DNA from: Pseudomonadota bacterium | GTDB lineage: Bacteria; Pseudomonadota; Alphaproteobacteria; Rhodospirillales; Casp-alpha2 | DNA length: 64,000 nt | Reading direction: 5' to 3' | Assembly: GCA_036337015.1 (NCBI GenBank) | Contig: JAYZEZ010000007.1 | Coordinates: 553,413-617,412, forward strand | Shown: positions 7,462 through 64,000 of the stretch, piece after piece | Layout: each line of letters opens with the position of its first letter | Numbering within the stretch: the first letter of the stretch is position 1 | The notes under the pieces: model-generated | Databases searched by the model: none | What the model was told of the DNA's origin: nothing | The model's input: only the letters and a program-made list of their open reading frames with translations | Made by a program: the position numbers and the translations under genes

Positions 7462-8928
7462 ATGAATGAAAACTCTTCCAGCTTAGTTGAAAATCGCTTG
7501 ACTGACCTTAAAAAAAATTCAGCCAAACAGGTCTTAAGTGTTTCTGAAATTTCTACAATTTTAAAACGTGCAGTAGAAGATGCCTTTGGTAAGGTTAAAA
7601 TTCAGGGAGAAATTTCAGGATTTAAGCGTGCGCAATCTGGACATTTGTATTTCTCTCTAAAGGACAGCTCTGCCGCTATAGATAGCGTTTGCTGGCGTGG
7701 CAATGCAAAAACGCTAAAAATTAACCCCGAAGATGGAATGGAAGTTATTGTCACAGGAAAATTAACCACTTATTCGGTTCGATCTCGTTATCAAATTGTC
7801 ATTGAGGACATGGAACTTGCTGGCGAAGGTGCACTTTTAAAACTTTTAGAGGACCGTCGCCGTAAATTAGCTGCTGAGGGGTTGTTTGATATTGGTAAAA
7901 AAAAACCAATCCCTTTTCTGCCTGCTATCATCGGAATTATCACTTCTGAAACTGGAGCGGTTTTTAGTGATATTCTTCATAGATTAAATGATCGCTTTCC
8001 ACGTCGAGTTATCTTATGGCCAGTAACAGTACAGGGATCATCCGCTGCTGATGAAATCGCCTTTGCGATCGAAGGGTTTAATAAATTAAGTCAAAATAGA
8101 AATAAAAATAATAAGAAGGCCATCCCATGTCCTGATATCCTAATAGTTGCAAGGGGTGGTGGAAGCTTAGAAGATTTAATGGCGTTCAACGAAGAAAGGG
8201 TTGTGCGCGCAGCAGCTACTAGCAGAATTCCCTTAGTTTCAGCTGTTGGCCATGAAACAGATAACACTTTGATTGATTATGTAGCTGATAAACGCGCGCC
8301 AACTCCAACTGCTGCTGCAGAAATGGTTGTGCCAGTTCGGACAGACCTTATGGTCCGCCTCGAAACAAACTCAGCCCGACTTATCAACGCAATAAGTCGT
8401 CTATTGAAAAGCATACAAAAAAATTTAGATACTTTGACTAGAACATTACCTGAATTGAAGAGGCTTGTTGATGTATTTAATCAAAGATTAGATGATTGGA
8501 CAGAGCGCCTCTTCAATTCAATTCACGTGTTTTTAAAAAATTACAATGCCAGATTAATGATTGCTACAACTGAAATACCAAAGCCCAAACAACAAATCGA
8601 GTATGCCAAACGAGAACTTAGTAGAGAAGCGCGCGCACTTAAAACGAAAGGAATCAATATAGTTTTGGAGCGTCAAAGTTACCTACAACAAATCACTGCG
8701 TTATTGGAAAGTTATTCATATCAAAGAGTTCTAGAAAGAGGATTTTCTCTAGTAACAAGCCAAAATCACAAGCCGATTGATTCAATAAATAAAATTTCGA
8801 CAGGGATGCCAGTTTCTCTACAATTTCAAGATGGCAAAACAAGCGCTACTATAACTGGAGAAGGCCAAAAAAAAAATAAATCTAATCAAATTAAAAATAG
8901 AGATAATAAACAGAGAAAATTGTTGTGA
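7462..8928 (+). CDS. xseA: exodeoxyribonuclease VII large subunit
   Basis: OB-fold N-terminus (VKIQGEISGFKRAQSGHLYFSLKD), catalytic core (ARGGGSLEDLMAFNEE, SAVGHETD) and a coiled-coil tail. Confidence 0.95.
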   Translation: MNENSSSLVENRLTDLKKNSAKQVLSVSEISTILKRAVEDAFGKVKIQGEISGFKRAQSGHLYFSLKDSSAAIDSVCWRGNAKTLKINPEDGMEVIVTGKLTTYSVRSRYQIVIEDMELAGEGALLKLLEDRRRKLAAEGLFDIGKKKPIPFLPAIIGIITSETGAVFSDILHRLNDRFPRRVILWPVTVQGSSAADEIAFAIEGFNKLSQNRNKNNKKAIPCPDILIVARGGGSLEDLMAFNEERVVRAAATSRIPLVSAVGHETDNTLIDYVADKRAPTPTAAAEMVVPVRTDLMVRLETNSARLINAISRLLKSIQKNLDTLTRTLPELKRLVDVFNQRLDDWTERLFNSIHVFLKNYNARLMIATTEIPKPKQQIEYAKRELSREARALKTKGINIVLERQSYLQQITALLESYSYQRVLERGFSLVTSQNHKPIDSINKISTGMPVSLQFQDGKTSATITGEGQKKNKSNQIKNRDNKQRKLL

Positions 8929-9776
8929 AAAATCTTAAATTTTTATTTTATTTTTTTATTTTGGAAATTGTGAATCTTGTATTGGGTGCTAATATGAGCC
9001 TAGCTGGAGACTTGCACCTAAAAGGCACTTTTATTCAAGGTGGCCTTATAACAGGATACACTGAACCTGGCGCACAAGTCTTATTCAACAACAAAAAAAT
9101 TCGTGTATCTAATCTTGGTGTTTTTCTTATAGGTTTCGGCCGCAATTCAAAGGACACAGCAACAATTAAAATAAAATTTCCTGATTCAAATATAATAAAA
9201 AAAAAACTATATGTAAAAAAACGTAATTATATTATACAGAGAATTGATGGTTTGCCACAAAAGCAAGTTAAGCCTGGCCCTAAAGATATAGAAAAAATAA
9301 AAAGCGATAATAAAAAAATAACAAATATTCGTCGCCTCGATACCGCTGATACTAGCTTTATCTCTGGTTTTCAATGGCCTGCCATTGGTCCTATCTCAGG
9401 CGTATTTGGAAGTCAGCGAATTTTAAACGGAATTGCCAAATCTCCTCACAATGGCGTCGACATCGCTGCTCCTAAAGGTTCGCCTGTGACTGCTGCTAGT
9501 GATGGAACAATCGTTTTAGTTCAAAATGATATGTTTTACACTGGAAAAACCATAATGATAAATCACGGACATGGACTCTCATCTATCTACGTACATATGG
9601 ATAAAATCCTAATCAAAAAAGGACAAAAAATAAGCAAGGGCCAGAAAATTGGAACCATTGGTAGTACTGGCAGGGCTACAGGACCACATTTACATTGGGG
9701 AATAAGCTTGTTCGATGTACACTTAGATCCATCACTTTTAGTTGGCAAAATGCCAAAAAAACCTGAAAAAGAATAA
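8925..9776 (+). CDS. M23 family metallopeptidase (secreted)
   Basis: Signal-like N-terminus. M23 motifs PHNGVDIAAPKGSPV and GPHLHWG. The GTG start overlaps the xseA stop. Confidence 0.9.
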   Translation: MKNLKFLFYFFILEIVNLVLGANMSLAGDLHLKGTFIQGGLITGYTEPGAQVLFNNKKIRVSNLGVFLIGFGRNSKDTATIKIKFPDSNIIKKKLYVKKRNYIIQRIDGLPQKQVKPGPKDIEKIKSDNKKITNIRRLDTADTSFISGFQWPAIGPISGVFGSQRILNGIAKSPHNGVDIAAPKGSPVTAASDGTIVLVQNDMFYTGKTIMINHGHGLSSIYVHMDKILIKKGQKISKGQKIGTIGSTGRATGPHLHWGISLFDVHLDPSLLVGKMPKKPEKE

Positions 9777-9794
9777 AAAAACTACAGAAAATAC

Positions 9795-10694
9795 TTAATC
9801 ATCTGGCCAGCGATTATGGAGCCAGAGCCATTGCTCAGGTGTATTGCGCACCCATTTTTCAATCATAGCATTAACTTGAGCCATATTTGCCACAACATCT
9901 TCTTTATGGCTATCGGTTTTAATGAGTTTTAGTGGCGGAAAAATTGTAAACCTGAATTTTGCTCCTTTTAAACGTGTTATACGCGTTGGAATAACCATAC
10001 AATCATAGCGAAGCGCTAATTCAGCCATAGCAGGGGCCGTCATAACATTACGCCCAAAAAAAGGAATAGGTATCCCATCATTCATTTTCTGATCGATCAA
10101 CATGGCCAAATGACGCCCACTTTTAAGCGATTTTAATAGAGCTCGTGCACCAGCAGGTCCTTTTGGAATTAAAGCCCCCTCGACAGTGGCTCGACCCGAA
10201 CGATAAAGCCATTCGACTAAACGATTGTTTGCCTCTCTATAAACTCGATCTAGGGATATGCCGTGCTGTGTAGCGCCTAAAGACAAAATTTCCCAATTCC
10301 CAATATGAGCAGAAAAGAAAATAGCTGAATTCCCACTATTCTTTAATAAATCCACATATTCTCCCCCAACATATTCAACACGTCCATCATTGCCACCAAT
10401 TACAATACTACTCAGATGCGGATATTCAGCTGCTAAACGACCAAGATTATCCCACATCCCACGGACAATATTTGAAATTTCAGCTTTTGATTTTTCAGGG
10501 AAGGCCACCTTAAGATTGTTTGTAGCTCGCCTTGAAATTTTCAAATTAGGGCCGATAGTACGACTTAACCAACCACCAAATGCAGAAGCAATATCAATTG
10601 GGAGAATTCTAAACGACGTGTATACTGCCACTGCTACTAGCGCTTGTAGAGGATAAAAGAAATACTTATTAAGCAGATTTAGTCTACGAACCAT
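9795..10694 (-). CDS. lipid A biosynthesis lauroyl/late acyltransferase family protein (LpxL/HtrB-like)
   Basis: N-terminal TM segment and HX4E-type motif HIGNWE. Sits directly downstream of lpxK. Confidence 0.85.
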   Translation of the reverse strand: MVRRLNLLNKYFFYPLQALVAVAVYTSFRILPIDIASAFGGWLSRTIGPNLKISRRATNNLKVAFPEKSKAEISNIVRGMWDNLGRLAAEYPHLSSIVIGGNDGRVEYVGGEYVDLLKNSGNSAIFFSAHIGNWEILSLGATQHGISLDRVYREANNRLVEWLYRSGRATVEGALIPKGPAGARALLKSLKSGRHLAMLIDQKMNDGIPIPFFGRNVMTAPAMAELALRYDCMVIPTRITRLKGAKFRFTIFPPLKLIKTDSHKEDVVANMAQVNAMIEKWVRNTPEQWLWLHNRWPDD

Positions 10695-10696
10695 AA

Positions 10697-11710
10697 TTAT
10701 AAGTAATTACTTTTTTGAAAATTAAACAACGGATTTAAAATGGCGTCGAGTGGCCTATCATCCACCCAGTCCAAGGACATGGTCAAAACTGATATTGTTT
10801 CCAAGTCCTTAGGCAAAAGCCTTGTGGCATCCTTTTCAGTTGTAACAAGTTGAGCATTGGAGCTTTTTGCCTCTTTTCGAAGATTGTCTAAATCATGTTT
10901 TGTGAAAAAATAATGATCTGAAAAAGAAAAAGTTGATGCAACCCTAAAACCAAATTTACGTAAAGCTTGAAAAAATTTTTCTGGGTAAGCAATACCGGCA
11001 AAAGCAACAATAGGATTTTTACTTAAGGCTTCAGCTTCCGTTCCAAAGAAAGAATTTGCACGAAATACAGGAATTACAAGTCCTCGAGTAGATAGTATTT
11101 CTTTAATTCCTACTTTATCTTGGCCAATAAGAACAATACCATCAGCACGTACCAAAGCAGAGCTTAGCGATTCGCGCAAGGGGCCCGCAGGAAAAATATG
11201 TCCATTACCAAATCCAAGCTCTCCATCAATAACTAATAAGGATAAATCTTTAAAAACCGTTGGATTCTGAAATCCATCGTCCATAATAATGACATCTGGA
11301 ATCACCCCTTCAATACCAGCAGAAGCCGCTGCTACTCCATCGGAACGTACTTTTGCAATCCAAACCGAGGCTACTCGCGCTAGCATGATGGCTTCGTCCC
11401 CTACATCCTCAGCAGTGTGTGTTTCTATATTTACAGGTATAGGTCCTTGTAATCTTCCACCATAACCCCTTGTCAAGAAACAAACAGTTCGCCCATCCGC
11501 AATTAGGCGCCTTGCTATATTGATAGCCACAGGAGTTTTTCCGGCGCCACCTGTTACAAAATTACCTATACAGATTAGCGGAACAGAATATTTTGCAGGC
11601 CGGACCAATAGAAAGCGGGCCCTTACTATGAGTCCGTAACACCACCCAATTGGAACGAATGGCCATTTCAAGATACTACCTTTCTTTTTCCAAAATTCAG
11701 GTATTTTCAC
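10697..11710 (-). CDS. lpxK: tetraacyldisaccharide 4'-kinase
   Basis: PEFWKKKG N-terminus and P-loop GNFVTGGAGKTP. GTG at 11710 is preferred; the ORF-track start at 11770 would overlap waaA by 74 nt. Confidence 0.9.
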   Translation of the reverse strand: MKIPEFWKKKGSILKWPFVPIGWCYGLIVRARFLLVRPAKYSVPLICIGNFVTGGAGKTPVAINIARRLIADGRTVCFLTRGYGGRLQGPIPVNIETHTAEDVGDEAIMLARVASVWIAKVRSDGVAAASAGIEGVIPDVIIMDDGFQNPTVFKDLSLLVIDGELGFGNGHIFPAGPLRESLSSALVRADGIVLIGQDKVGIKEILSTRGLVIPVFRANSFFGTEAEALSKNPIVAFAGIAYPEKFFQALRKFGFRVASTFSFSDHYFFTKHDLDNLRKEAKSSNAQLVTTEKDATRLLPKDLETISVLTMSLDWVDDRPLDAILNPLFNFQKSNYL

Positions 11711-12992
11711 TTGAACTATCCTTAAAACTAAATTTTTCAATAAAAGGAACCAATTCTGTGAACACTGCATCTAAAGCTACAGATTCATTAGCAGCAAATA
11801 CTTTTGCTGAAGCAGCCATCCGTTCACAATATAATTTATCGCCAAGCAAACCTTGAATTGAAGTTAATAGTTCTTCAGTATCTTGTACCTGTATCGCTGC
11901 ATTCGCTTTTTTCATTCGAATTGAAACATCCTCAAAATTCATCATGTGTGGGCCATAAACAATTGCACAGCCCAACCTAGCAGCTTCTAACGGATTTTGA
12001 CCCCCAAATGGCACCAAGGATTTACCAATAAAAACAACATTTGCTATTCTAAAAAACAAACCCATTTCACCAATTGTATCTGCTATATAGAATTCAGTTG
12101 AAGACTTTATCGAATCTCCATTTGAACGCAAAGCGACAGAAATGCCCCGCTGCCTAATTTGAACAGCAATTTTTTTTCCCCGCTTTGGGTTTCGCGGAAC
12201 AATTATCGTCAAAAGCCCTACATTTGAGCCTTTTAAACCCTGATGTATCTGTACACTAATATCTTCTTCCCCAGCGTGAGTGCTAGCTGCTAACCAGATA
12301 GGCCTACTACCAATCTTATTTGTCAATTCTAAAAGCTCGCTCCTATCAAAAGGTAGTAAAAAACTAGAAAATTTTAGGTTTCCAACATATTTAGTAGTTT
12401 TAGATCCCAATTGGCGTAATCGCCACACATCAACATCTGATTGCCCCAAACATAAATCAAAACAACTAAGCAACTTCTTAATCAAGCTTTTAAAATTACC
12501 CCAACCAGCGAAAGACTTTAGAGAAACGCGCCCATTTACAAGAACCATTGGAATTTTACGATTTGCTGTTTCTGTAATCATGTTAGGCCAAAATTCAGAC
12601 TCTGCCCATAAAGCAAGGTCCGGGCGCCAATGATCAAGAAACCGCCTAACAAATAACGTTTGATCAATTGGAGCAAATTGATGAAATGTTCTTTCCGGAA
12701 GCCTCTCTTCCATCATTTGGGCTGATGTAACTGTTCCAGTAGTAACAAGAATATTAATTTTTTTACTCTCCCCTATTAGTCGTCCAATTAATGGTAACAT
12801 AGATAGGGATTCGCCAATACTTGCCGCATGAACCCAAATTAAATTTCCATCAGGTCGCCCAATACTAGGATGGCCAAACCGTTCCTTAAATCTAGTAGTA
12901 TCTTCCTTGCCACTAAATCTTCGAAAGTGAATATAAAACCAGATTAAGGGTGCACCGAGAAGCAAAAGCCCACGGTACAAAAATAGCATCAT
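11697..12992 (-). CDS. waaA: 3-deoxy-D-manno-octulosonic acid (Kdo) transferase
   Basis: 431 aa. N-terminal TM segment, IWVHAASIGE motif and a GT30 family body. Confidence 0.93.
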   Translation of the reverse strand: MMLFLYRGLLLLGAPLIWFYIHFRRFSGKEDTTRFKERFGHPSIGRPDGNLIWVHAASIGESLSMLPLIGRLIGESKKINILVTTGTVTSAQMMEERLPERTFHQFAPIDQTLFVRRFLDHWRPDLALWAESEFWPNMITETANRKIPMVLVNGRVSLKSFAGWGNFKSLIKKLLSCFDLCLGQSDVDVWRLRQLGSKTTKYVGNLKFSSFLLPFDRSELLELTNKIGSRPIWLAASTHAGEEDISVQIHQGLKGSNVGLLTIIVPRNPKRGKKIAVQIRQRGISVALRSNGDSIKSSTEFYIADTIGEMGLFFRIANVVFIGKSLVPFGGQNPLEAARLGCAIVYGPHMMNFEDVSIRMKKANAAIQVQDTEELLTSIQGLLGDKLYCERMAASAKVFAANESVALDAVFTELVPFIEKFSFKDSSSENT

Positions 12993-13734: not shown

Positions 13735-15597
13735 TCAAGCGCCAATTATTAGGTCCTCATCTTTAGATGAAGCCTCTTCGGAAAATTGCAAATTATACAA
13801 TCGATGATAAACACCAGACTGAGACATCAAAGTATCATGATCACCTTTTTCAATAACACGACCGTCATCAATGACATATATTAAGTCAGCACTAATCACG
13901 GTGGACAGTCTATGGGCAATCACTAGTGTTGTCCTTCCCGCCATCAATTTTAAAAGTGCATCCTGTACTTGACGTTCAGACTTAGTATCTAAGGACGATG
14001 TTGCCTCATCTAGAAGAAGAACTGGCGCGTTCTTTAGCATCGCACGTGCAATAGCCAAACGTTGGCGTTGACCACCTGAAAGTTTAATACCTTGCTCACC
14101 AACAATAGTGTCATAACCCTCTGGCAGTTCTTTAATAAAATTATGGGCCGCAGCATTACGTGCCGCTTCAACAATTTCTTCTTCAGAAGCTCCAGCTTTA
14201 CCATATCTTATATTTGCACGGACTGTGTCATCAAAAAGAGTTATTTCCTGGCTGACCAGAGCCACATTGCCAAAAAGAGAAGAAAAAGAAATATCACGAA
14301 CGTCCATACTATCAATATAAACACACCCTTTCTCAACATCGTAGAAACGTGGAATTAAATTTAGAATTGTTGTTTTCCCGGCTCCGGATGCACCGACTAA
14401 AGCCACTCTTTTTCCTGCAGGAACCTCAAGCGTAATTCCTTTAAGTGCCGAATTGCCTTTTGTATATGAAAAATGAACACCCTCAAGACATATGTGCCCC
14501 TTCACCGTTGTAAGTTTAACCGCATCAGGTTTTTCCATGATCGCGGGTTGAGTGTCTATTAGAGAAAACAATCTTTGTGCGCCTGCGAGTCCTTCTTGAA
14601 GGCTCGAGTTAAGATTAACGAGTCGCTTCATTGGCTCATATGCCAACAACAAAGCCATAATAAATGAGAAAAAAGCACCTGAAGTTGTTTCTCCAGCTAT
14701 TACTCGATGTCCGCCATAAATAATGACTATGCAAACAGCTAATCCACCCATAGCCTCCATAATTGGACTGGCTCGAGATCGTGTTCGTACAGATTTAAGA
14801 TTTAATTTAAATATTCGTTCAACAATTTTTCCAATTCTATTTTTTTCATAATCTTCCATACCATAGGCTTTTATTACTCTAATGCCCTGAAAACACTGCT
14901 CAAGCAAAGTTGTAAATATACCCATTTCTTCTTGGGTGTTGACTGTCACTTTGCGCATCCTACGTCCGAGCGTTAATATTGGAATCGCCACCAAAGGGAA
15001 TACTACAACTGAAATTGTCGCCAACTGCCAATCCTTAAGAAACATAACGCCAACTAAACCCAGGAATGATAATAAATCTTTCCCAAATCCAGTTAAAACA
15101 TTGGATACCGCGACACGCATCTGATTAATATCAACGGTAAATCGGGAGATCAAACCGCCTGTCGGATTGTTGTGAAAAAAACTAATATCCATTTTAGCTA
15201 GGTGTGAAAATAATCGATTCTGATTATCGGCAATTATTCTAAATCCAACAAAGCTCATCAGTACAGATTGGGCGTAACTAGCCCCACCTTTTACAATAAA
15301 GGTAACAAATACAGCTAAACCTAACGGCCAAAGCATAGAACGGTTTTCACCAATAAAAACCTCATTGACAACCGGTTCCATGAGCCAAGCACTAAACGCT
15401 GTTGCCGCTGCCATTAATGCCATAAATATTACCGCAAGAAGCAGCCAGCCAAAATAAGGCCTGATACTTTCTCGCCATAAGCGCAGCATTAAAACATGTG
15501 TGGAGATATGCTGCTCTGGTATTTGATCAATTATTGTATTCAAATTCTGGAAGTCCGTTCCTAACGAAGCGGAAACTAACATACAGTAATGTCCCAC
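13735..15597 (-). CDS. ABC exporter, fused permease/ATPase (MsbA-like lipid A flippase candidate)
   Basis: Six-TM exporter domain plus a canonical NBD (GASGAGKTT, LSGGQRQRLAIARA, LLLDEATSSLD, IAHRLST). The start is uncertain; internal ATGs lie at 15582 and 15489. Confidence 0.85.
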   Translation of the reverse strand: MGHYCMLVSASLGTDFQNLNTIIDQIPEQHISTHVLMLRLWRESIRPYFGWLLLAVIFMALMAAATAFSAWLMEPVVNEVFIGENRSMLWPLGLAVFVTFIVKGGASYAQSVLMSFVGFRIIADNQNRLFSHLAKMDISFFHNNPTGGLISRFTVDINQMRVAVSNVLTGFGKDLLSFLGLVGVMFLKDWQLATISVVVFPLVAIPILTLGRRMRKVTVNTQEEMGIFTTLLEQCFQGIRVIKAYGMEDYEKNRIGKIVERIFKLNLKSVRTRSRASPIMEAMGGLAVCIVIIYGGHRVIAGETTSGAFFSFIMALLLAYEPMKRLVNLNSSLQEGLAGAQRLFSLIDTQPAIMEKPDAVKLTTVKGHICLEGVHFSYTKGNSALKGITLEVPAGKRVALVGASGAGKTTILNLIPRFYDVEKGCVYIDSMDVRDISFSSLFGNVALVSQEITLFDDTVRANIRYGKAGASEEEIVEAARNAAAHNFIKELPEGYDTIVGEQGIKLSGGQRQRLAIARAMLKNAPVLLLDEATSSLDTKSERQVQDALLKLMAGRTTLVIAHRLSTVISADLIYVIDDGRVIEKGDHDTLMSQSGVYHRLYNLQFSEEASSKDEDLIIGA

Positions 15598-59180: not shown

Positions 59181-60161
59181 ATGTTTAAAATGCCAAAAGC
59201 TCAAATCACAAAAGAACCAGATTTTGCAGTTGAAACAATAAACTTATGTAAAACTTACAATTTAAAAGATACTGGCCAATCAGTTGAAGCGCTGAAAAAT
59301 ATATCGTTGAAAATCCCGCGCGGATCTTTTTTTGGGCTTTTAGGTCCCAATGGAGCTGGAAAGTCAACTTTAATCAATATTTTAGCCGGACTAGCTATTA
59401 AGACAAGTGGTGAAGCACGTATTTGGGATTATGATATTGAAAGAGATATGAGAAGAGCACGGCTTTCTATAGGTGTGGTACCACAAGAATTAAATTTAGA
59501 CCCTTATTTTACACCACGAGAATGTCTCGAAGTTCAGGCGGGATTATATGGGGTCAAAAAAAATGATCGCCGTACTAAAGAAGTTCTAGACGCTGTCGGT
59601 CTTGCAGATAAAGCAGATGCTTATGCTAGATCATTATCGGGAGGCATGCGCCGACGTCTCTTAGTTGCTAAAGCGATGATTCATTCCCCACCGGTTTTAG
59701 TGCTTGATGAGCCATCTGCAGGTGTAGATGTGGATTTGCGTCGCCAATTATGGGATCGCGTAAAAGAAATGAATCGTCTAGGTGTTACTGTACTATTAAC
59801 TACTCACTATTTAGAGGAAGCCCAGACCCTATGCGATACTATAGCTATAATAAATCATGGAAAACTAATTGCTTGCGAACCGACCAAAGATATGGTCAGA
59901 AAATTAGATACCAAAGAAATGACTGTTACCATAGATCGTAAAATTAAAAGCCTGCCTGAAAGCCTTAAACGCTATAAGGTAAAAGTACTTAATGGCCAAA
60001 AGTTAAAATTTTCCTTCCCTCCGTCTAGCATTAACTCTGGCGAAATACTTAAGGCTATTCAAGATATTGACCTAAACATAATAGATGTGACAACGCGTGA
60101 GACAGAGTTGGAGGATATTTTTCTCAAGTTGACCAGCTTGCCCACTTCAGAGAAGCTTTAA
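59181..60161 (+). CDS. ABC transporter ATP-binding protein (ABC-2/NatA-like, with C-terminal extension)
   Basis: Canonical motifs GLLGPNGAGKSTL, LSGGMRRRLLVAKA, LVLDEPSAGVD and LTTHYLEEA. Confidence 0.9.
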   Translation: MFKMPKAQITKEPDFAVETINLCKTYNLKDTGQSVEALKNISLKIPRGSFFGLLGPNGAGKSTLINILAGLAIKTSGEARIWDYDIERDMRRARLSIGVVPQELNLDPYFTPRECLEVQAGLYGVKKNDRRTKEVLDAVGLADKADAYARSLSGGMRRRLLVAKAMIHSPPVLVLDEPSAGVDVDLRRQLWDRVKEMNRLGVTVLLTTHYLEEAQTLCDTIAIINHGKLIACEPTKDMVRKLDTKEMTVTIDRKIKSLPESLKRYKVKVLNGQKLKFSFPPSSINSGEILKAIQDIDLNIIDVTTRETELEDIFLKLTSLPTSEKL

Positions 60162-61270: not shown

Positions 61271-63160
61271 CTATTGTCCTGGTTCGGTAAAACTGGTTTT
61301 TATAGTGCGCATTACTGGATATAAGAAGTAGGTAATCAATCGACGCTTACCTGCACGAATATCCCCATTCAAGAGCATCCCTGGAACTAACGAAAAGTTT
61401 CCTGGAAGGTCTCTTAGCTCATTTGATGCCATTGTGGATCTCGCGCGATAAAAAGTGCCCTTTGAACCATCAAGTCCTGTATCGACCGTATCTTTTGAAA
61501 TAAATGAAATCTCTCCTAAAATCTCCCCATGCTTCTGATACGGCAAAGCATCAAGCTTAACTGAAACCTTTGCCCCAAGCATAAGATTTCCTATGTTTTT
61601 AGGGTCAATGTCGAGTTCTACAGTCAAAGGAACATCTGAAGGAACTAGAGACATGATCGTATCTCCTTCCCTGACAAGGGCGCCAACGAAAAGGTTTTGC
61701 ATATCCATAATTACGCCATCGGCGGGAGCAAGAATTTTAACGTTCTCTTTGCGCCGACGAAGCTTGACCAGATCTTCTTTCATAGAGTCTCTTTCATTTG
61801 AAGACTGAGATAGCTCAATACCAATTTTAGAAAACCAACCACTAACAAAATTCTGCTTATCGGCACGCAAAGATTCAAGTTCACTCTTAAGATTTCTGAC
61901 AGAGCTATTTAACTTACTGTATTCACGTTGAACAGATAAACGAGTGTTTTTCGCCTGTAGCATATTTAAGCGAGATCCAACATTCCTTTTAAAAAGATCT
62001 CTACGTGCGTTTTCTATATCCTTTTGAATTTTAAGCTGTTCTTTTGCCAGCCCAATATCCATTGAAGTCGATGTTAATTTTAACTCAAGACTTTTCATAT
62101 CAAGATTAAAGGATGCAATTTTTGAGGTGTATTCTTTTTGGCGATTTATAAAAACCTTTTCCTGAAGTTGATCTCTAATGGTTTTGGGATCAAAACCTTT
62201 TACTGTATCCATCTCCGCTTCAAGTCTACGGATTTTGGCCTCTAAAAGCCTAAATTCCATTTCTGACCGCTTTAGGTCCGCTTCAGCATAGGTTTCATCA
62301 AGGGTCACTATTACATCACCCTTTTTAACTCTTTGTCCAATTGAAACCTCAATGCTTTCTACAACAGAATTATCTGTAGCTTGCACCTCAATAGTGGGTA
62401 CAGTGGTCGATAATCGACCACGGGCGGAAAGCGTTGTATCAATCACAGAAAAAGATGCCCAAGCTACGAAAGAGCCTAAAAGAAATATGATTGTAAGAAC
62501 GGTGTTTCTTACTATCGGAGGCAAACTACTTTTTTCCGTTGCCACACTTGCTGACTGGTATTCATCAATAATATGTTCCGCATCAGACAATTCTGATGAT
62601 TCAAAAATATTACTAAAACGCCTCCATATTGATCGAAGGGTGTTGGGAATATCTAAACGTCCATTTTCATGACGCTGTAAAATTTTATTACTATCTAAAG
62701 TTTCTTCTATATCTAAAGAATTATCATCTTTAATTTCTTCTTCTTTTTTATCAAAAACACTACCTTCGATATTTTTATTGGTAGTACGCGCATAATTAGC
62801 TAGCCGGTACATCATATTCATTGCAACATCGGGTGACTTTTTTATGTGAGCCATAAAAGCAGTCTCATCAATTTCCCGAACGATGATATCTGTTACAGCT
62901 CTAGCAGAAGCAGAGCGCACAGATTTATCAATGAGAGCCATTTCACCAAAAAGGGTGTTTTCTTTAATGTCTACAAGCTTAATAATTTCCCCTTGAGAAA
63001 TCTTACATATCTCTGCTTCACCAGAAAGAAGCACATAAGCAAATTCACCTACATCACCTTCTTCAAATACAAATTCTCCAGCAGCGAAACTGCGTTCATT
63101 CTGACCGTGACCGCTTTTTTTTGCATTATTTGGATTATTCTGGTTTTCACCCTGTGTCAT
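61271..63160 (-). CDS. HlyD-family type I secretion adaptor with N-terminal cyclic-nucleotide-binding domain
   Basis: aa ~25-135 form a cNMP-binding fold with the phosphate-binding cassette FGEMALIDKSVRSASARA. A single TM segment (VLTIIFLLGSFVAWASFSVI) follows. Then comes the HlyD barrel-sandwich/coiled-coil region, ending in the typical RLITYFLYP tail. Confidence 0.88.
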   Translation of the reverse strand: MTQGENQNNPNNAKKSGHGQNERSFAAGEFVFEEGDVGEFAYVLLSGEAEICKISQGEIIKLVDIKENTLFGEMALIDKSVRSASARAVTDIIVREIDETAFMAHIKKSPDVAMNMMYRLANYARTTNKNIEGSVFDKKEEEIKDDNSLDIEETLDSNKILQRHENGRLDIPNTLRSIWRRFSNIFESSELSDAEHIIDEYQSASVATEKSSLPPIVRNTVLTIIFLLGSFVAWASFSVIDTTLSARGRLSTTVPTIEVQATDNSVVESIEVSIGQRVKKGDVIVTLDETYAEADLKRSEMEFRLLEAKIRRLEAEMDTVKGFDPKTIRDQLQEKVFINRQKEYTSKIASFNLDMKSLELKLTSTSMDIGLAKEQLKIQKDIENARRDLFKRNVGSRLNMLQAKNTRLSVQREYSKLNSSVRNLKSELESLRADKQNFVSGWFSKIGIELSQSSNERDSMKEDLVKLRRRKENVKILAPADGVIMDMQNLFVGALVREGDTIMSLVPSDVPLTVELDIDPKNIGNLMLGAKVSVKLDALPYQKHGEILGEISFISKDTVDTGLDGSKGTFYRARSTMASNELRDLPGNFSLVPGMLLNGDIRAGKRRLITYFLYPVMRTIKTSFTEPGQ

Positions 63161-63165
63161 ACCAA

Positions 63166-64000
63166 TTAAGCAACCTGTTCTTTAGGTGAAGTTGAGAGCT
63201 TGGGATCAACTAGAGCTCTTTCCATTTGATAAAGCCTTTGGTAAAGGCCCTCTTGAGCTACTAATTCATCATGGGCTCCAGATTGAACAACTTTACCTTT
63301 ATCCATAACTAGTATGAGGTCGGAATTTGCAACTTTGGAAACATAATTAGAAATTAGGATTAAGGTTCTTCCGCGATTAATGTCATCCATCCTCTCCCTA
63401 AGTGCAAGCTCACTTTCCATATCAAAGCCAGCAACTGCATCATCTAAAATAAGAATTTTTGGATTACGAATTAATGCCCTTGCTATAGCAATTTTTTGGC
63501 GGATAACCTCGGTAATATTTAAACCACCTTCCTCAAGAAGAGTTTCATATCCGTCAGACATTTGTTCCACATCCTCATGTAAGCCAACCATTTTAGAGGC
63601 CCATAAAACTCTCGCCATTGCAGCGTTTGGAGATGGTTTTAAAATATTTTCCCGTATTGTTGCTTTAAAAAAACTCGAGTCTTGGCTTACCGCAGCTACA
63701 TTTATCCTTAGATGGCCCAAATCTAATGAACGTATGTCTTGATCATCAATAGTAATAGTGCCTTCATCTGCCTTAAGTAATCCTTGAATATGACGTGCTA
63801 AGGTGCTTTGCCCAGAACCTGATTGACCAACAATACCAACTCTTTGTCGAGCCTGAATCTTAAAAGAAACTCTATCTAAAGCTAATGGCCCATCTTCATA
63901 TTTAAAACTCACATCTTTAAACTCTATACTGCCAAATATATCTGTAACCAAGCCTCTGCGAACGCTTTCTCCGCGAGAGTTCATAACAGGGCTTAAGGAA
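63166..64000 (-). CDS. ABC exporter (type I secretion/HlyB-like), C-terminal NBD only; 5' end outside window; catalytic motifs degenerate
   Basis: The frame stays open to the window edge. The NBD fold aligns to HlyB/MsbA, but Walker A is GQSGSGQST, the signature is LNITEV, Walker B is ILILDDA and the H-loop is ISNYVS. The stop lies 5 nt before the HlyD-like start. Confidence 0.85.
   Translation of the reverse strand, partial: SLSPVMNSRGESVRRGLVTDIFGSIEFKDVSFKYEDGPLALDRVSFKIQARQRVGIVGQSGSGQSTLARHIQGLLKADEGTITIDDQDIRSLDLGHLRINVAAVSQDSSFFKATIRENILKPSPNAAMARVLWASKMVGLHEDVEQMSDGYETLLEEGGLNITEVIRQKIAIARALIRNPKILILDDAVAGFDMESELALRERMDDINRGRTLILISNYVSKVANSDLILVMDKGKVVQSGAHDELVAQEGLYQRLYQMERALVDPKLSTSPKEQVA

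Follow-up and report, generated by a model that had tools for sequence, protein, structure and literature searches.

In the type I secretion system (T1SS) HlyB/HlyD/TolC of E. coli, the ATP-binding cassette (ABC) protein HlyB joins a C39-like domain without the catalytic Cys to six transmembrane helices and a nucleotide-binding domain (NBD), and the gene for an HlyD-type adaptor lies next to it. The motifs of HlyB are fully canonical and hydrolysis is needed; replacement of the H-loop His alone (H662A) abolishes hydrolysis and secretion, and ATP binding and dimerisation persist (PMC5018854). The energisation of T1SSs is debated, with ATP seen either as delivering a power stroke per polypeptide stretch or as opening a gate, and Lenders et al. 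discuss the proton motive force or an electrostatic gradient as additional drivers that may contribute (PMC5018854). Here we analyse the 3′ end of an HlyB-type exporter gene at the edge of a 64,000-nucleotide stretch of an alphaproteobacterial genome (the window: positions 553,413 to 617,412 of contig JAYZEZ010000007.1, assembly GCA_036337015.1), in which the Walker A Lys, the LSGGQ signature, the catalytic Glu and the H-loop His are all replaced. With moderate confidence, we read its product as carrying a conserved pseudo-ATPase NBD within a T1SS-like complex regulated by a cyclic nucleotide monophosphate (cNMP).

The present system is homologous to that of HlyB: the domain order of the full-length orthologues and the adjoining adaptor gene are similar, and TolC genes adjoin the locus in several relatives. 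In contrast to the HlyB system, the present system places a cNMP-binding domain on the adaptor, and the candidate cargo of its relatives has no detected Pfam RTX or other domain.

In the asymmetric exporters TM287/288, TmrAB, BmrCD, Pdr5 and CFTR, which have one degenerate ATP site, Glu, His and signature residues have likewise been replaced by natural selection with the fold kept. Nucleotide binding is retained at the degenerate site of such exporters, which serves regulation and not catalysis (PMC8277102, PMC7544095); loss of the catalytic Glu is given as the hallmark of degenerate sites (PMC7544095), and the known degenerate sites always accompany one canonical site (PMC8277102). The present chain differs in that Walker A, Walker B, H-loop and signature are all degenerate in one polypeptide, whereas the asymmetric exporters keep one canonical composite site over two chains or halves. 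A further point of comparison is HetC of Nostoc, in which, as in NHLP-type ABC2 proteins, a cNMP-type sensor is attached to an export machine of the HlyB/PCAT class; the cNMP domain of HetC is needed for function and binds ppGpp in vitro, and its catalytic Glu is essential (PMC10986499). In contrast to HetC, where the sensor sits on the ABC chain together with a catalytic C39 domain, the present ABC chain has a C39-like domain without catalytic function and a catalytically degenerate NBD, and it is the adaptor that carries the sensor. TIGR03797 (NHLM_micro_ABC2) is matched at 287.6 bits, below its cut-off of 709.4, and the N-termini of the orthologues are C39-like, with no cNMP domain.

The part of the ABC gene within the window and the motifs of its NBD are as follows.

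63166..64000 (-), 3′ end of the HlyB-type ABC exporter gene (277 codons plus stop; complete NBD)
63898..63906 (-), A-loop FKY; the adenine-stacking aromatic residue (Tyr) is kept
63802..63828 (-), Walker A/P-loop GQSGSGQST; Lys replaced by Gln (CAA, 63808-63810), glycines and Ser/Thr kept
63679..63690 (-), Q-loop VSQD; Gln kept
63523..63540 (-), X-loop equivalent LLEEGG; kept
63502..63516 (-), signature position; ITEVI replaces LSGGQ, no indel (HMMER and MAFFT alignments)
63439..63456 (-), Walker B ILILDD; Mg-binding Asp kept, catalytic Glu replaced by Asp (GAT, 63439-63441)
63421..63432 (-), D-loop equivalent AGFD (canonical SALD); Asp kept
63337..63354 (-), H-loop ISNYVS; His replaced by Asn (AAT, 63346-63348)

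Translation of 63166-63999(-) gives 277 codons with the TAA at 63166-63168 as sole stop; the frame remains open up to the window edge, and the gene runs about 1.33 kb past it. The original prediction had described an intact NBD of the HlyB/MsbA kind, and profile and structure comparisons agree. Pfam ABC_tran matches the fragment with 2.2e-26 (93.5 bits, cut-off 25), and the top NCBIfam model is TIGR01846 (HlyB T1SS subfamily; 237.6 bits), followed by MsbA and LssB. TIGR01846 is also the best family for full-length orthologues, despite whole-protein scores (509 bits for locus L090 and 519 bits for L091) that do not reach its cut-off of 725.55. An AlphaFold2 model of the 277 residues has a mean predicted local distance difference test (pLDDT) score of 90.2 and superposes on the NBDs of HlyB, MsbA and PCAT1 with template modelling (TM) scores of 0.80-0.87; the HlyB chain of the HlyB/D complex (7SGR/8DCK) comes closest, with a TM score of 0.85 and 40% identity, and TmrAB and TM287/288 are also among the matches.

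The Walker A substitution and its codon are exactly as predicted, the changes of Glu to Asp and His to Asn hold, and the Q-loop and the IAIARAL helix are indeed present. For the signature, the predicted replacement of LSGGQ stands and the predicted two-residue insertion does not: ITEVI matches the LSGGQ columns without gaps, both in HMMER alignments to P-gp/ABCB4 and in MAFFT alignments to canonical relatives, and the preceding Asn occupies the column before the signature, where canonical relatives share it (NLSGGQ). Some of these alignments were anchored on a HlyB sequence, and the motif columns were confirmed separately by alignments to PDB entries.

Two other ABC ATPases in the window have canonical motifs, an MsbA at 13735-15597 (GASGAGKT/LSGGQ/VLLLDE/AHRL) and a DrrA-type ATPase at 59181-60161 (GPNGAGKS/LSGGM/VLVLDE/TTH). 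Both were considered as partners of the degenerate chain and set aside: the former is an equivalog-level match to the lipid A flippase, the latter an ABC-2-type ATPase, and neither is linked to T1SS genes.

The remainder of the gene was followed past position 64000 through a near-identical strain. The 26.9-kb contig L169 (Tara ERR599087) shares the gene neighbourhood of the window and encodes an adaptor with 98% amino acid identity; its ABC reading frame is unbroken and complete at L169:177-2387, with a Met at codon 16 that gives 721 aa in the order C39-like, ABC_membrane and ABC_tran. Its NBD differs from that of the window by one residue (5 synonymous, 1 nonsynonymous change), and that of L089, a partial ABC gene within 2.9 kb of 97.6% nucleotide identity, is identical in amino acids (5 synonymous, 0 nonsynonymous). 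More distant orthologues in L090 (87-88% identity in the NBD) and L172 (85% in the adaptor) have intact ABC genes of 723 aa. The window holds the NBD only; the C39-like domain, the six-helix ABC_membrane domain and the C-terminal NBD are seen in L169, L090 and L172. All three carry the same four substitutions. The C39-like domain is recognised weakly (3.5e-5 for L090, with the C39-like domain 3B79 also weakly matched), and its Cys position is occupied by Ser, or by Gly in L012, across 16 of 16 aligned family sequences. A true C39 peptidase/bacteriocin exporter of the PCAT type was rejected because the catalytic Cys is absent.

The pattern of substitution points to strong purifying selection, in line with the earlier view that the domain is intact and not decaying. 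In Nei-Gojobori estimates, the NBDs of the window and L090 differ by dN 0.069 and a dS of about 2.1, and dS is nearly saturated in the most distant pairs, so that their omega values are approximate. For L090 against L172, the NBD gives dN 0.040 and dS 0.94 (omega 0.042) and the transmembrane domain (TMD) an omega of 0.026. Judged by these rates, with omega of about 0.03-0.05 on the NBD, the constraint on the degenerate NBD is about equal to that on the membrane domain; strong purifying selection also acts on the C39-like domain and on the periplasmic domains of the adaptor. The substituted positions themselves are preserved. The Walker A Gln codon CAA is common to the window, L169, L089, L172, L090, L007 and L091, the signature column reads LTEAI, LIEAI or LAETM in orthologues, and synonymous codons occur at the H-loop Asn (AAT/AAC) and the signature Glu (GAG/GAA). 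One otherwise well-conserved NBD orthologue, L008 (Logan DRR267105), has a frameshift in a T-run at L008:400-440 (...VSQETSFF/KAS...), which is probably a homopolymer assembly error.

With the adaptor and the NBD as queries, a scan of genomes and metagenomes recovered more than 30 related loci, from marine Rhodospirillales/Terasakiella, SAR116, single amplified genomes labelled 'Rickettsiales' and Magnetococcales. Every family locus has an ABC gene of about 715-745 aa with a C39-like domain directly 5′ of a gene for an HlyD-family adaptor with a cNMP domain (cNMP-HlyD). In a neighbour-joining tree of 243 NBD-core columns, the ABC proteins linked to cNMP-HlyD are monophyletic (100/100 bootstraps) and sister to canonical HlyB-like proteins, of which P0017 and P0010 adjoin HlyD genes without a cNMP domain. 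The signature is non-canonical in all the linked proteins, many additionally lack the Q-loop Gln, the H-loop His or the catalytic Glu, and the A-loop aromatic residue (Y or F) is never lost. Loss of the Walker A Lys is restricted to L091 and the window clade. The branch leading to the window shows a nested series of losses, with 90-94% support at its inner nodes and 100% bootstrap for the fully degenerate clade, in the order signature, then H-loop, then Walker A Lys together with the catalytic Glu:

Terasakiella sp. SH-1, LSVGM only
L006, LSAGQ; H to N
L174 and L001, LSESI and LSECQ; H to S and H to N, respectively
L091, GRAGAGQTT (K to Q), LAETM, ILILDQA (E to Q, CAG), IASRVS (H to S)
window clade, K to Q, ITEVI or LTEAI, E to D, H to N

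L091 (67% identity) is thus fully degenerate too, with residues different from those of the window clade, and two other branches have lost the catalytic Glu independently (E to D and E to N). Within the family, conservation of the NBD lies below that of the TMD by 0.03-0.16 in most pairs compared, and against HlyB this pattern is reversed. On this tree the window gene is the end point of a stepwise degeneration across a monophyletic family and not a peculiarity of one gene. The original prediction that there is no lineage-wide drift therefore holds for the other ABC ATPases of the window, which are canonical, and fails for the family linked to cNMP-HlyD, across which such drift exists.

In a 916-kb ENA contig, L001:7226-12134 is a decaying copy of the system, in which an IS630-like insertion (HTH_23 + DDE_3) splits the ABC gene, the acidic gene upstream has a frameshift and an IS66 transposase gene lies 3′ of the adaptor gene. 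More distant cNMP-HlyD loci with two ABC genes upstream (L026-L030 and L032, at about 5.7-9.9 kb in each locus) occur in metagenome-assembled genomes (MAGs) of Rhodospirillales and Methylocystaceae; their signatures read LPKGIKQ and MPTSLLQ, one of the ABC proteins has Pro for the H-loop His, and they may represent a heterodimeric cousin of the system. A second, convergent pair of ABC and HlyD genes, without a C39-like domain, is found at L002:4259-7286(-), L011:8598-11442(-) and L012:16942-19759(-), and a second ABC gene alone at L024:10442-12286(-). In L002, the degenerate pair and the second pair flank one TolC gene; its second ABC protein, the only one whose motifs were read, is canonical (GRIGSGKST/LSGGQ/DEP/H).

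Directly downstream of the ABC gene in the window lies the adaptor gene, with the following features.

63161..63165 (-), spacer of 5 nt between the stop of the ABC gene and the ATG of the adaptor gene
61271..63160 (-), HlyD-family T1SS periplasmic adaptor, 629 aa (Pfam HlyD_3; TIGR01843)
62840..63097 (-), cNMP-binding domain of the adaptor, residues 22-107 (Pfam cNMP_binding, 3.5e-18)
62897-62953 (-), phosphate-binding cassette LFGEMALIDKSVRSASARA of the adaptor, conserved throughout the relatives examined
62441..62497 (-), predicted transmembrane helix LTIIFLLGSFVAWASFSVI, the only one in the adaptor, at residues 222-240 (hydropathy scan)

The adaptor scores 289.8 bits on TIGR01843, above the cut-off of 208.65. 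The short spacer indicates an operon, with probable translational coupling, and the order of ABC gene and then adaptor gene recurs at every related locus. The phosphate-binding cassette of the window adaptor, FGEMALIDKSVRSASARA, is canonical, and the cNMP domain, which takes up roughly the first 110 residues, is followed by a linker of about 110 residues and then the transmembrane helix; the pattern FGE...R[SA][AG] is intact in all adaptors checked. If the topology is that of HlyD, the cNMP domain would be cytoplasmic. The window adaptor has 629 aa, compared with 627 aa in the 98%-identical Tara strains (L089:1202-3085 and L169:2393-4276), and the DNA alignment of these genes shows five small gap openings, an indel polymorphism.

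The ABC/adaptor pair of the window clade sits between a his operon with a HIT-family gene and housekeeping genes. In L090 and L172 the ABC gene lies directly 3′ of the his operon and HIT-family gene (L090:4351-8509, L172:1361-5540), the operon comprising hisB with an N-terminal helix-turn-helix domain, DUF2628, hisH, hisA, hisF and hisE, and these genes are probably arranged in this way immediately past position 64000, outside the window, as well. The GC content of the locus equals that of the rest of the window, and the synteny with L172 and L090 indicates vertical inheritance. A tblastn search of the 64-kb window found no TolC, second HlyD, nucleotide cyclase or acidic candidate cargo; MsbA is the sole other exporter in it, with no second HlyB-like ABC protein.

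In most relatives, an acidic protein of 300-570 aa with no Pfam match is encoded immediately upstream of the ABC gene. Full-length and partial reading frames were located as follows.

L012:6720-7730, acidic ORF
L015:6155-7060, acidic ORF
L016:4894-6618, acidic ORF
L018:1793-2845, acidic ORF
L022:6685-7674, acidic ORF
L173:6552-7649, acidic ORF of 365 aa (Terasakiella sp. SH-1, CP038255.1), with the ABC gene at 7762-9999 and the adaptor gene at 10001-11770
L174:6651-7676, acidic ORF
L014, L017, L019, L021, L037 and L091:3-383, partial acidic ORFs

These proteins have a net charge of -19 to -96 and are rich in Met, Pro, Gly, Ala and Asp, with a Met content of 10-23% in most of the full-length ones. 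Lys is absent and Arg occurs at most once in 13 of 15 ORFs; the Terasakiella protein has K=3 and R=0, and the 15 include the frameshifted reading at L001:6268, which is Arg/Lys-rich. They share a conserved alanine-rich N-terminal module of about 70 aa and repeats of the PPPEGD/MPPDAMGGM type, and their C-termini include ...DMDVDVV, ...ETDVV and ...SAGMG. A chain that ends in an acidic residue and then hydrophobic ones resembles the signals of T1SS protease and lipase substrates, and Met-rich repeats recall Cu(I)-binding motifs. The acidic proteins are likely candidates for T1SS cargo. A protein-database search with their N-terminal domain returned no match, for which compositional bias is the probable reason.

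Other linked genes are consistent with a secretion system under cyclic-nucleotide control. A TolC (OEP) gene is adjacent in five loci (L002, L009, L010, L012 and L016), and L012 carries the full array of TolC, acidic protein, ABC protein, cNMP-HlyD and, directly 3′ of the latter, a CHASE2 adenylate/guanylate cyclase (L012:11699-14056; Pfam). BLAST detects homologues of the cyclase in L011 and L013 as well, and in the vicinity of the system in L018 and L021; a Crp-type regulator adjoins the system in L016 (6748-7485(-)). These linked cyclases and the regulator point to a dedicated cyclic-nucleotide circuit for these secretion systems. In a Magnetovibrio MAG, L022:14502-21749 holds an ORF of more than 2416 aa with no Pfam match, 2.7 kb 3′ of cNMP-HlyD and running off the end of the locus.

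Loss of ATPase activity, retained nucleotide binding, gating by cNMP and an electrophoretic energy source are what we infer from sequence. The window chain is defective in both halves of the composite site, so that a normal ATPase cycle is not expected, either in a homodimer or with a partner; as originally predicted, the substitution of four hydrolysis positions in one chain leaves no fully canonical site in either assembly. Since the Tyr of the A-loop, the Gln of the Q-loop and the Asp of Walker B are kept, nucleotide binding is plausible, and the suggested role in nucleotide sensing or as a scaffold fits the kept P-loop together with these residues. The X-loop is the element that couples NBD to TMD in ABC exporters, and judged by the motif alignments both it and the D-loop, the contacts to the TMD and the partner NBD, are kept along with the fold and the pocket scaffold. 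As a conserved pseudo-ATPase module, the NBDs would have ceased to power transport and would serve non-hydrolysing dimerisation, gating or scaffolding in an ABC/adaptor complex, possibly with TolC, while the adaptor, through its cNMP sensor, would have taken over control. Across the wider family, the Lys/Arg-free polyanionic protein encoded upstream would be the cargo, and the inside-negative membrane potential could drive its export, with ATP hydrolysis becoming progressively dispensable. Export driven by the membrane potential is a speculative and, in our estimate, unlikely part of this proposal. We attach similarly low credence to the fuller model of an ABC-derived, hydrolysis-independent protein channel, in which the NBD would gate, cNMP on the adaptor would open the channel and the polyanionic (Met-rich, possibly metal-binding) protein would leave electrophoretically.

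Several points weigh against these proposals. The loss of ATPase activity is deduced from knowledge of the motifs, and Asp at the Glu site and Gln in Walker A could allow weak binding or very slow turnover. The electrophoretic idea is drawn from cargo composition and its correlation with degenerate NBDs, and the cargo is already essentially K/R-free in Terasakiella, whose NBD is nearly canonical. The tree is a distance tree on 243 columns with a weak placement of Terasakiella (44%). For the deeper pairs, dS is close to saturation. A canonical partner ABC protein elsewhere in the source genome is possible. The window clade (window, L169, L172 and L090) has no acidic gene, TolC or cyclase nearby, the acidic protein being absent from the 64-kb window and from the flanks of L090 and L172, so that the cargo of the window lineage, and even its transport function, is putative.

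Among the alternatives, a canonical ABC half-transporter encoded elsewhere, or a mixed HlyB/HlyD assembly, could hydrolyse ATP on behalf of the window chain by means of the partner's Walker A, Walker B and H-loop, and the window chain would then be the regulatory half. HlyB-type T1SS ABC proteins are homodimers, and both in the window clade and in the relatives closest to it the adaptor gene is preceded by a single ABC gene, not by a pair of half-transporter genes. Asymmetric heterodimers with one dead site are nevertheless well known (PMC8277102), TmrAB and TM287/288 appear among the structural matches, and a second pair of ABC and HlyD genes lies a few kb off in L002 and L011-L013 (a second ABC gene only in L024), canonical in L002. 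We regard such a rescue as quite unlikely, since the signature of the window chain is also degenerate and would leave the partner's site without a canonical one; moreover, no second HlyB-like ABC or HlyD was found in the 64-kb window or in the 20-kb L172 and 27-kb L169 contexts, and the second ABC proteins encoded nearby in relatives come with an adaptor of their own and are devoid of a C39-like domain. A residual, non-canonical ATPase is the reading that the conserved pocket scaffold (A-loop Tyr, GxxGxGx[ST]T, Q-loop Gln, Walker B Asp and D-loop Asp) would allow: slow hydrolysis, with Asp as general base and contacts from Gln and Asn, could act as a 'timer' for a gated channel. Asp at the catalytic-Glu site also occurs in the degenerate sites of known heterodimers, as in TmrB D500, which is called regulatory (PMC8277102). 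Against this, four independent catalytic elements have been lost together, whereas H662A alone is enough to stop hydrolysis and secretion in HlyB (PMC5018854), and L091 combines K to Q with E to Q, a classic hydrolysis-blocking substitution. The residues also vary by sub-clade (D/Q, N/S, ITEVI/LAETM), which argues against a newly selected catalytic constellation, and we give slow turnover a low probability.

The window clade might instead have been repurposed for a role outside transport, as an envelope-anchored complex for cyclic-nucleotide signalling or scaffolding, and the fact that full degeneration of the NBD coincides there with the missing acidic, TolC and cyclase genes speaks for this. 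Yet strong constraint on the TMD, on the C39-like domain and on the adaptor's periplasmic domains is what a conduit still in use would be expected to show, L091 has a candidate cargo upstream in spite of its full degeneration, and T1SS cargo and TolC genes are often unlinked; we think it improbable that transport has been abandoned. True decay does occur in the family, as the IS630-like split, the IS66 element and the frameshifted acidic gene of L001 illustrate, and L008 has its T-run frameshift. That the window gene is a young pseudogene or a product of sequencing or assembly errors is nonetheless highly improbable and is rejected here, because the ORFs are intact in independent assemblies and omega is about 0.03-0.05, with synonymous differences vastly outnumbering nonsynonymous ones. 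Assemblies that are independent and come from different projects, at least six in number, share the substitutions (those of the window, L089, L169, L172, L090 and L007). A conserved pseudo-ATPase NBD in a cNMP-regulated T1SS-like complex is the most economical reading and the one that we prefer.

In the literature searched, neither cNMP-HlyD adaptors nor a T1SS ABC protein whose NBD is fully degenerate were found to be described. The combination of cNMP-HlyD adaptor, degenerate ABC protein and K/R-free acidic protein, sometimes with TolC and a CHASE2 cyclase, appears from the gene arrangements to be a previously undescribed module of marine Alphaproteobacteria and Magnetococcales that would link cyclic-nucleotide signalling to protein export. 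The family offers a natural, graded series of HlyB-type exporters, from the near-canonical protein of Terasakiella sp. SH-1, which is cultured and fully sequenced, to those of the window clade and L091; the membrane domain, adaptor and reading frame are strongly constrained throughout, so that the contribution of ATP hydrolysis becomes testable. Among ABC transporters, it would be unusual for a probable homodimer to have no competent ATP site and to keep a pseudo-enzyme domain for structural or gating purposes. In CFTR the NBDs gate and do not pump, regulation runs via a cyclic-nucleotide pathway and anions pass down their electrochemical gradient, and the likeness to the present system, an exporter architecture with gating NBDs under cyclic-nucleotide control and anions moving down a gradient, would be one of functional analogy only. 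The homology stops at the ABC fold, CFTR keeps one hydrolytic site, and the putative substrate here is a polyanionic protein passing through a tripartite envelope conduit. If true, the channel reading would be a bacterial parallel to the pump-to-channel conversion of CFTR and a natural experiment on the need for ATP in type I secretion.

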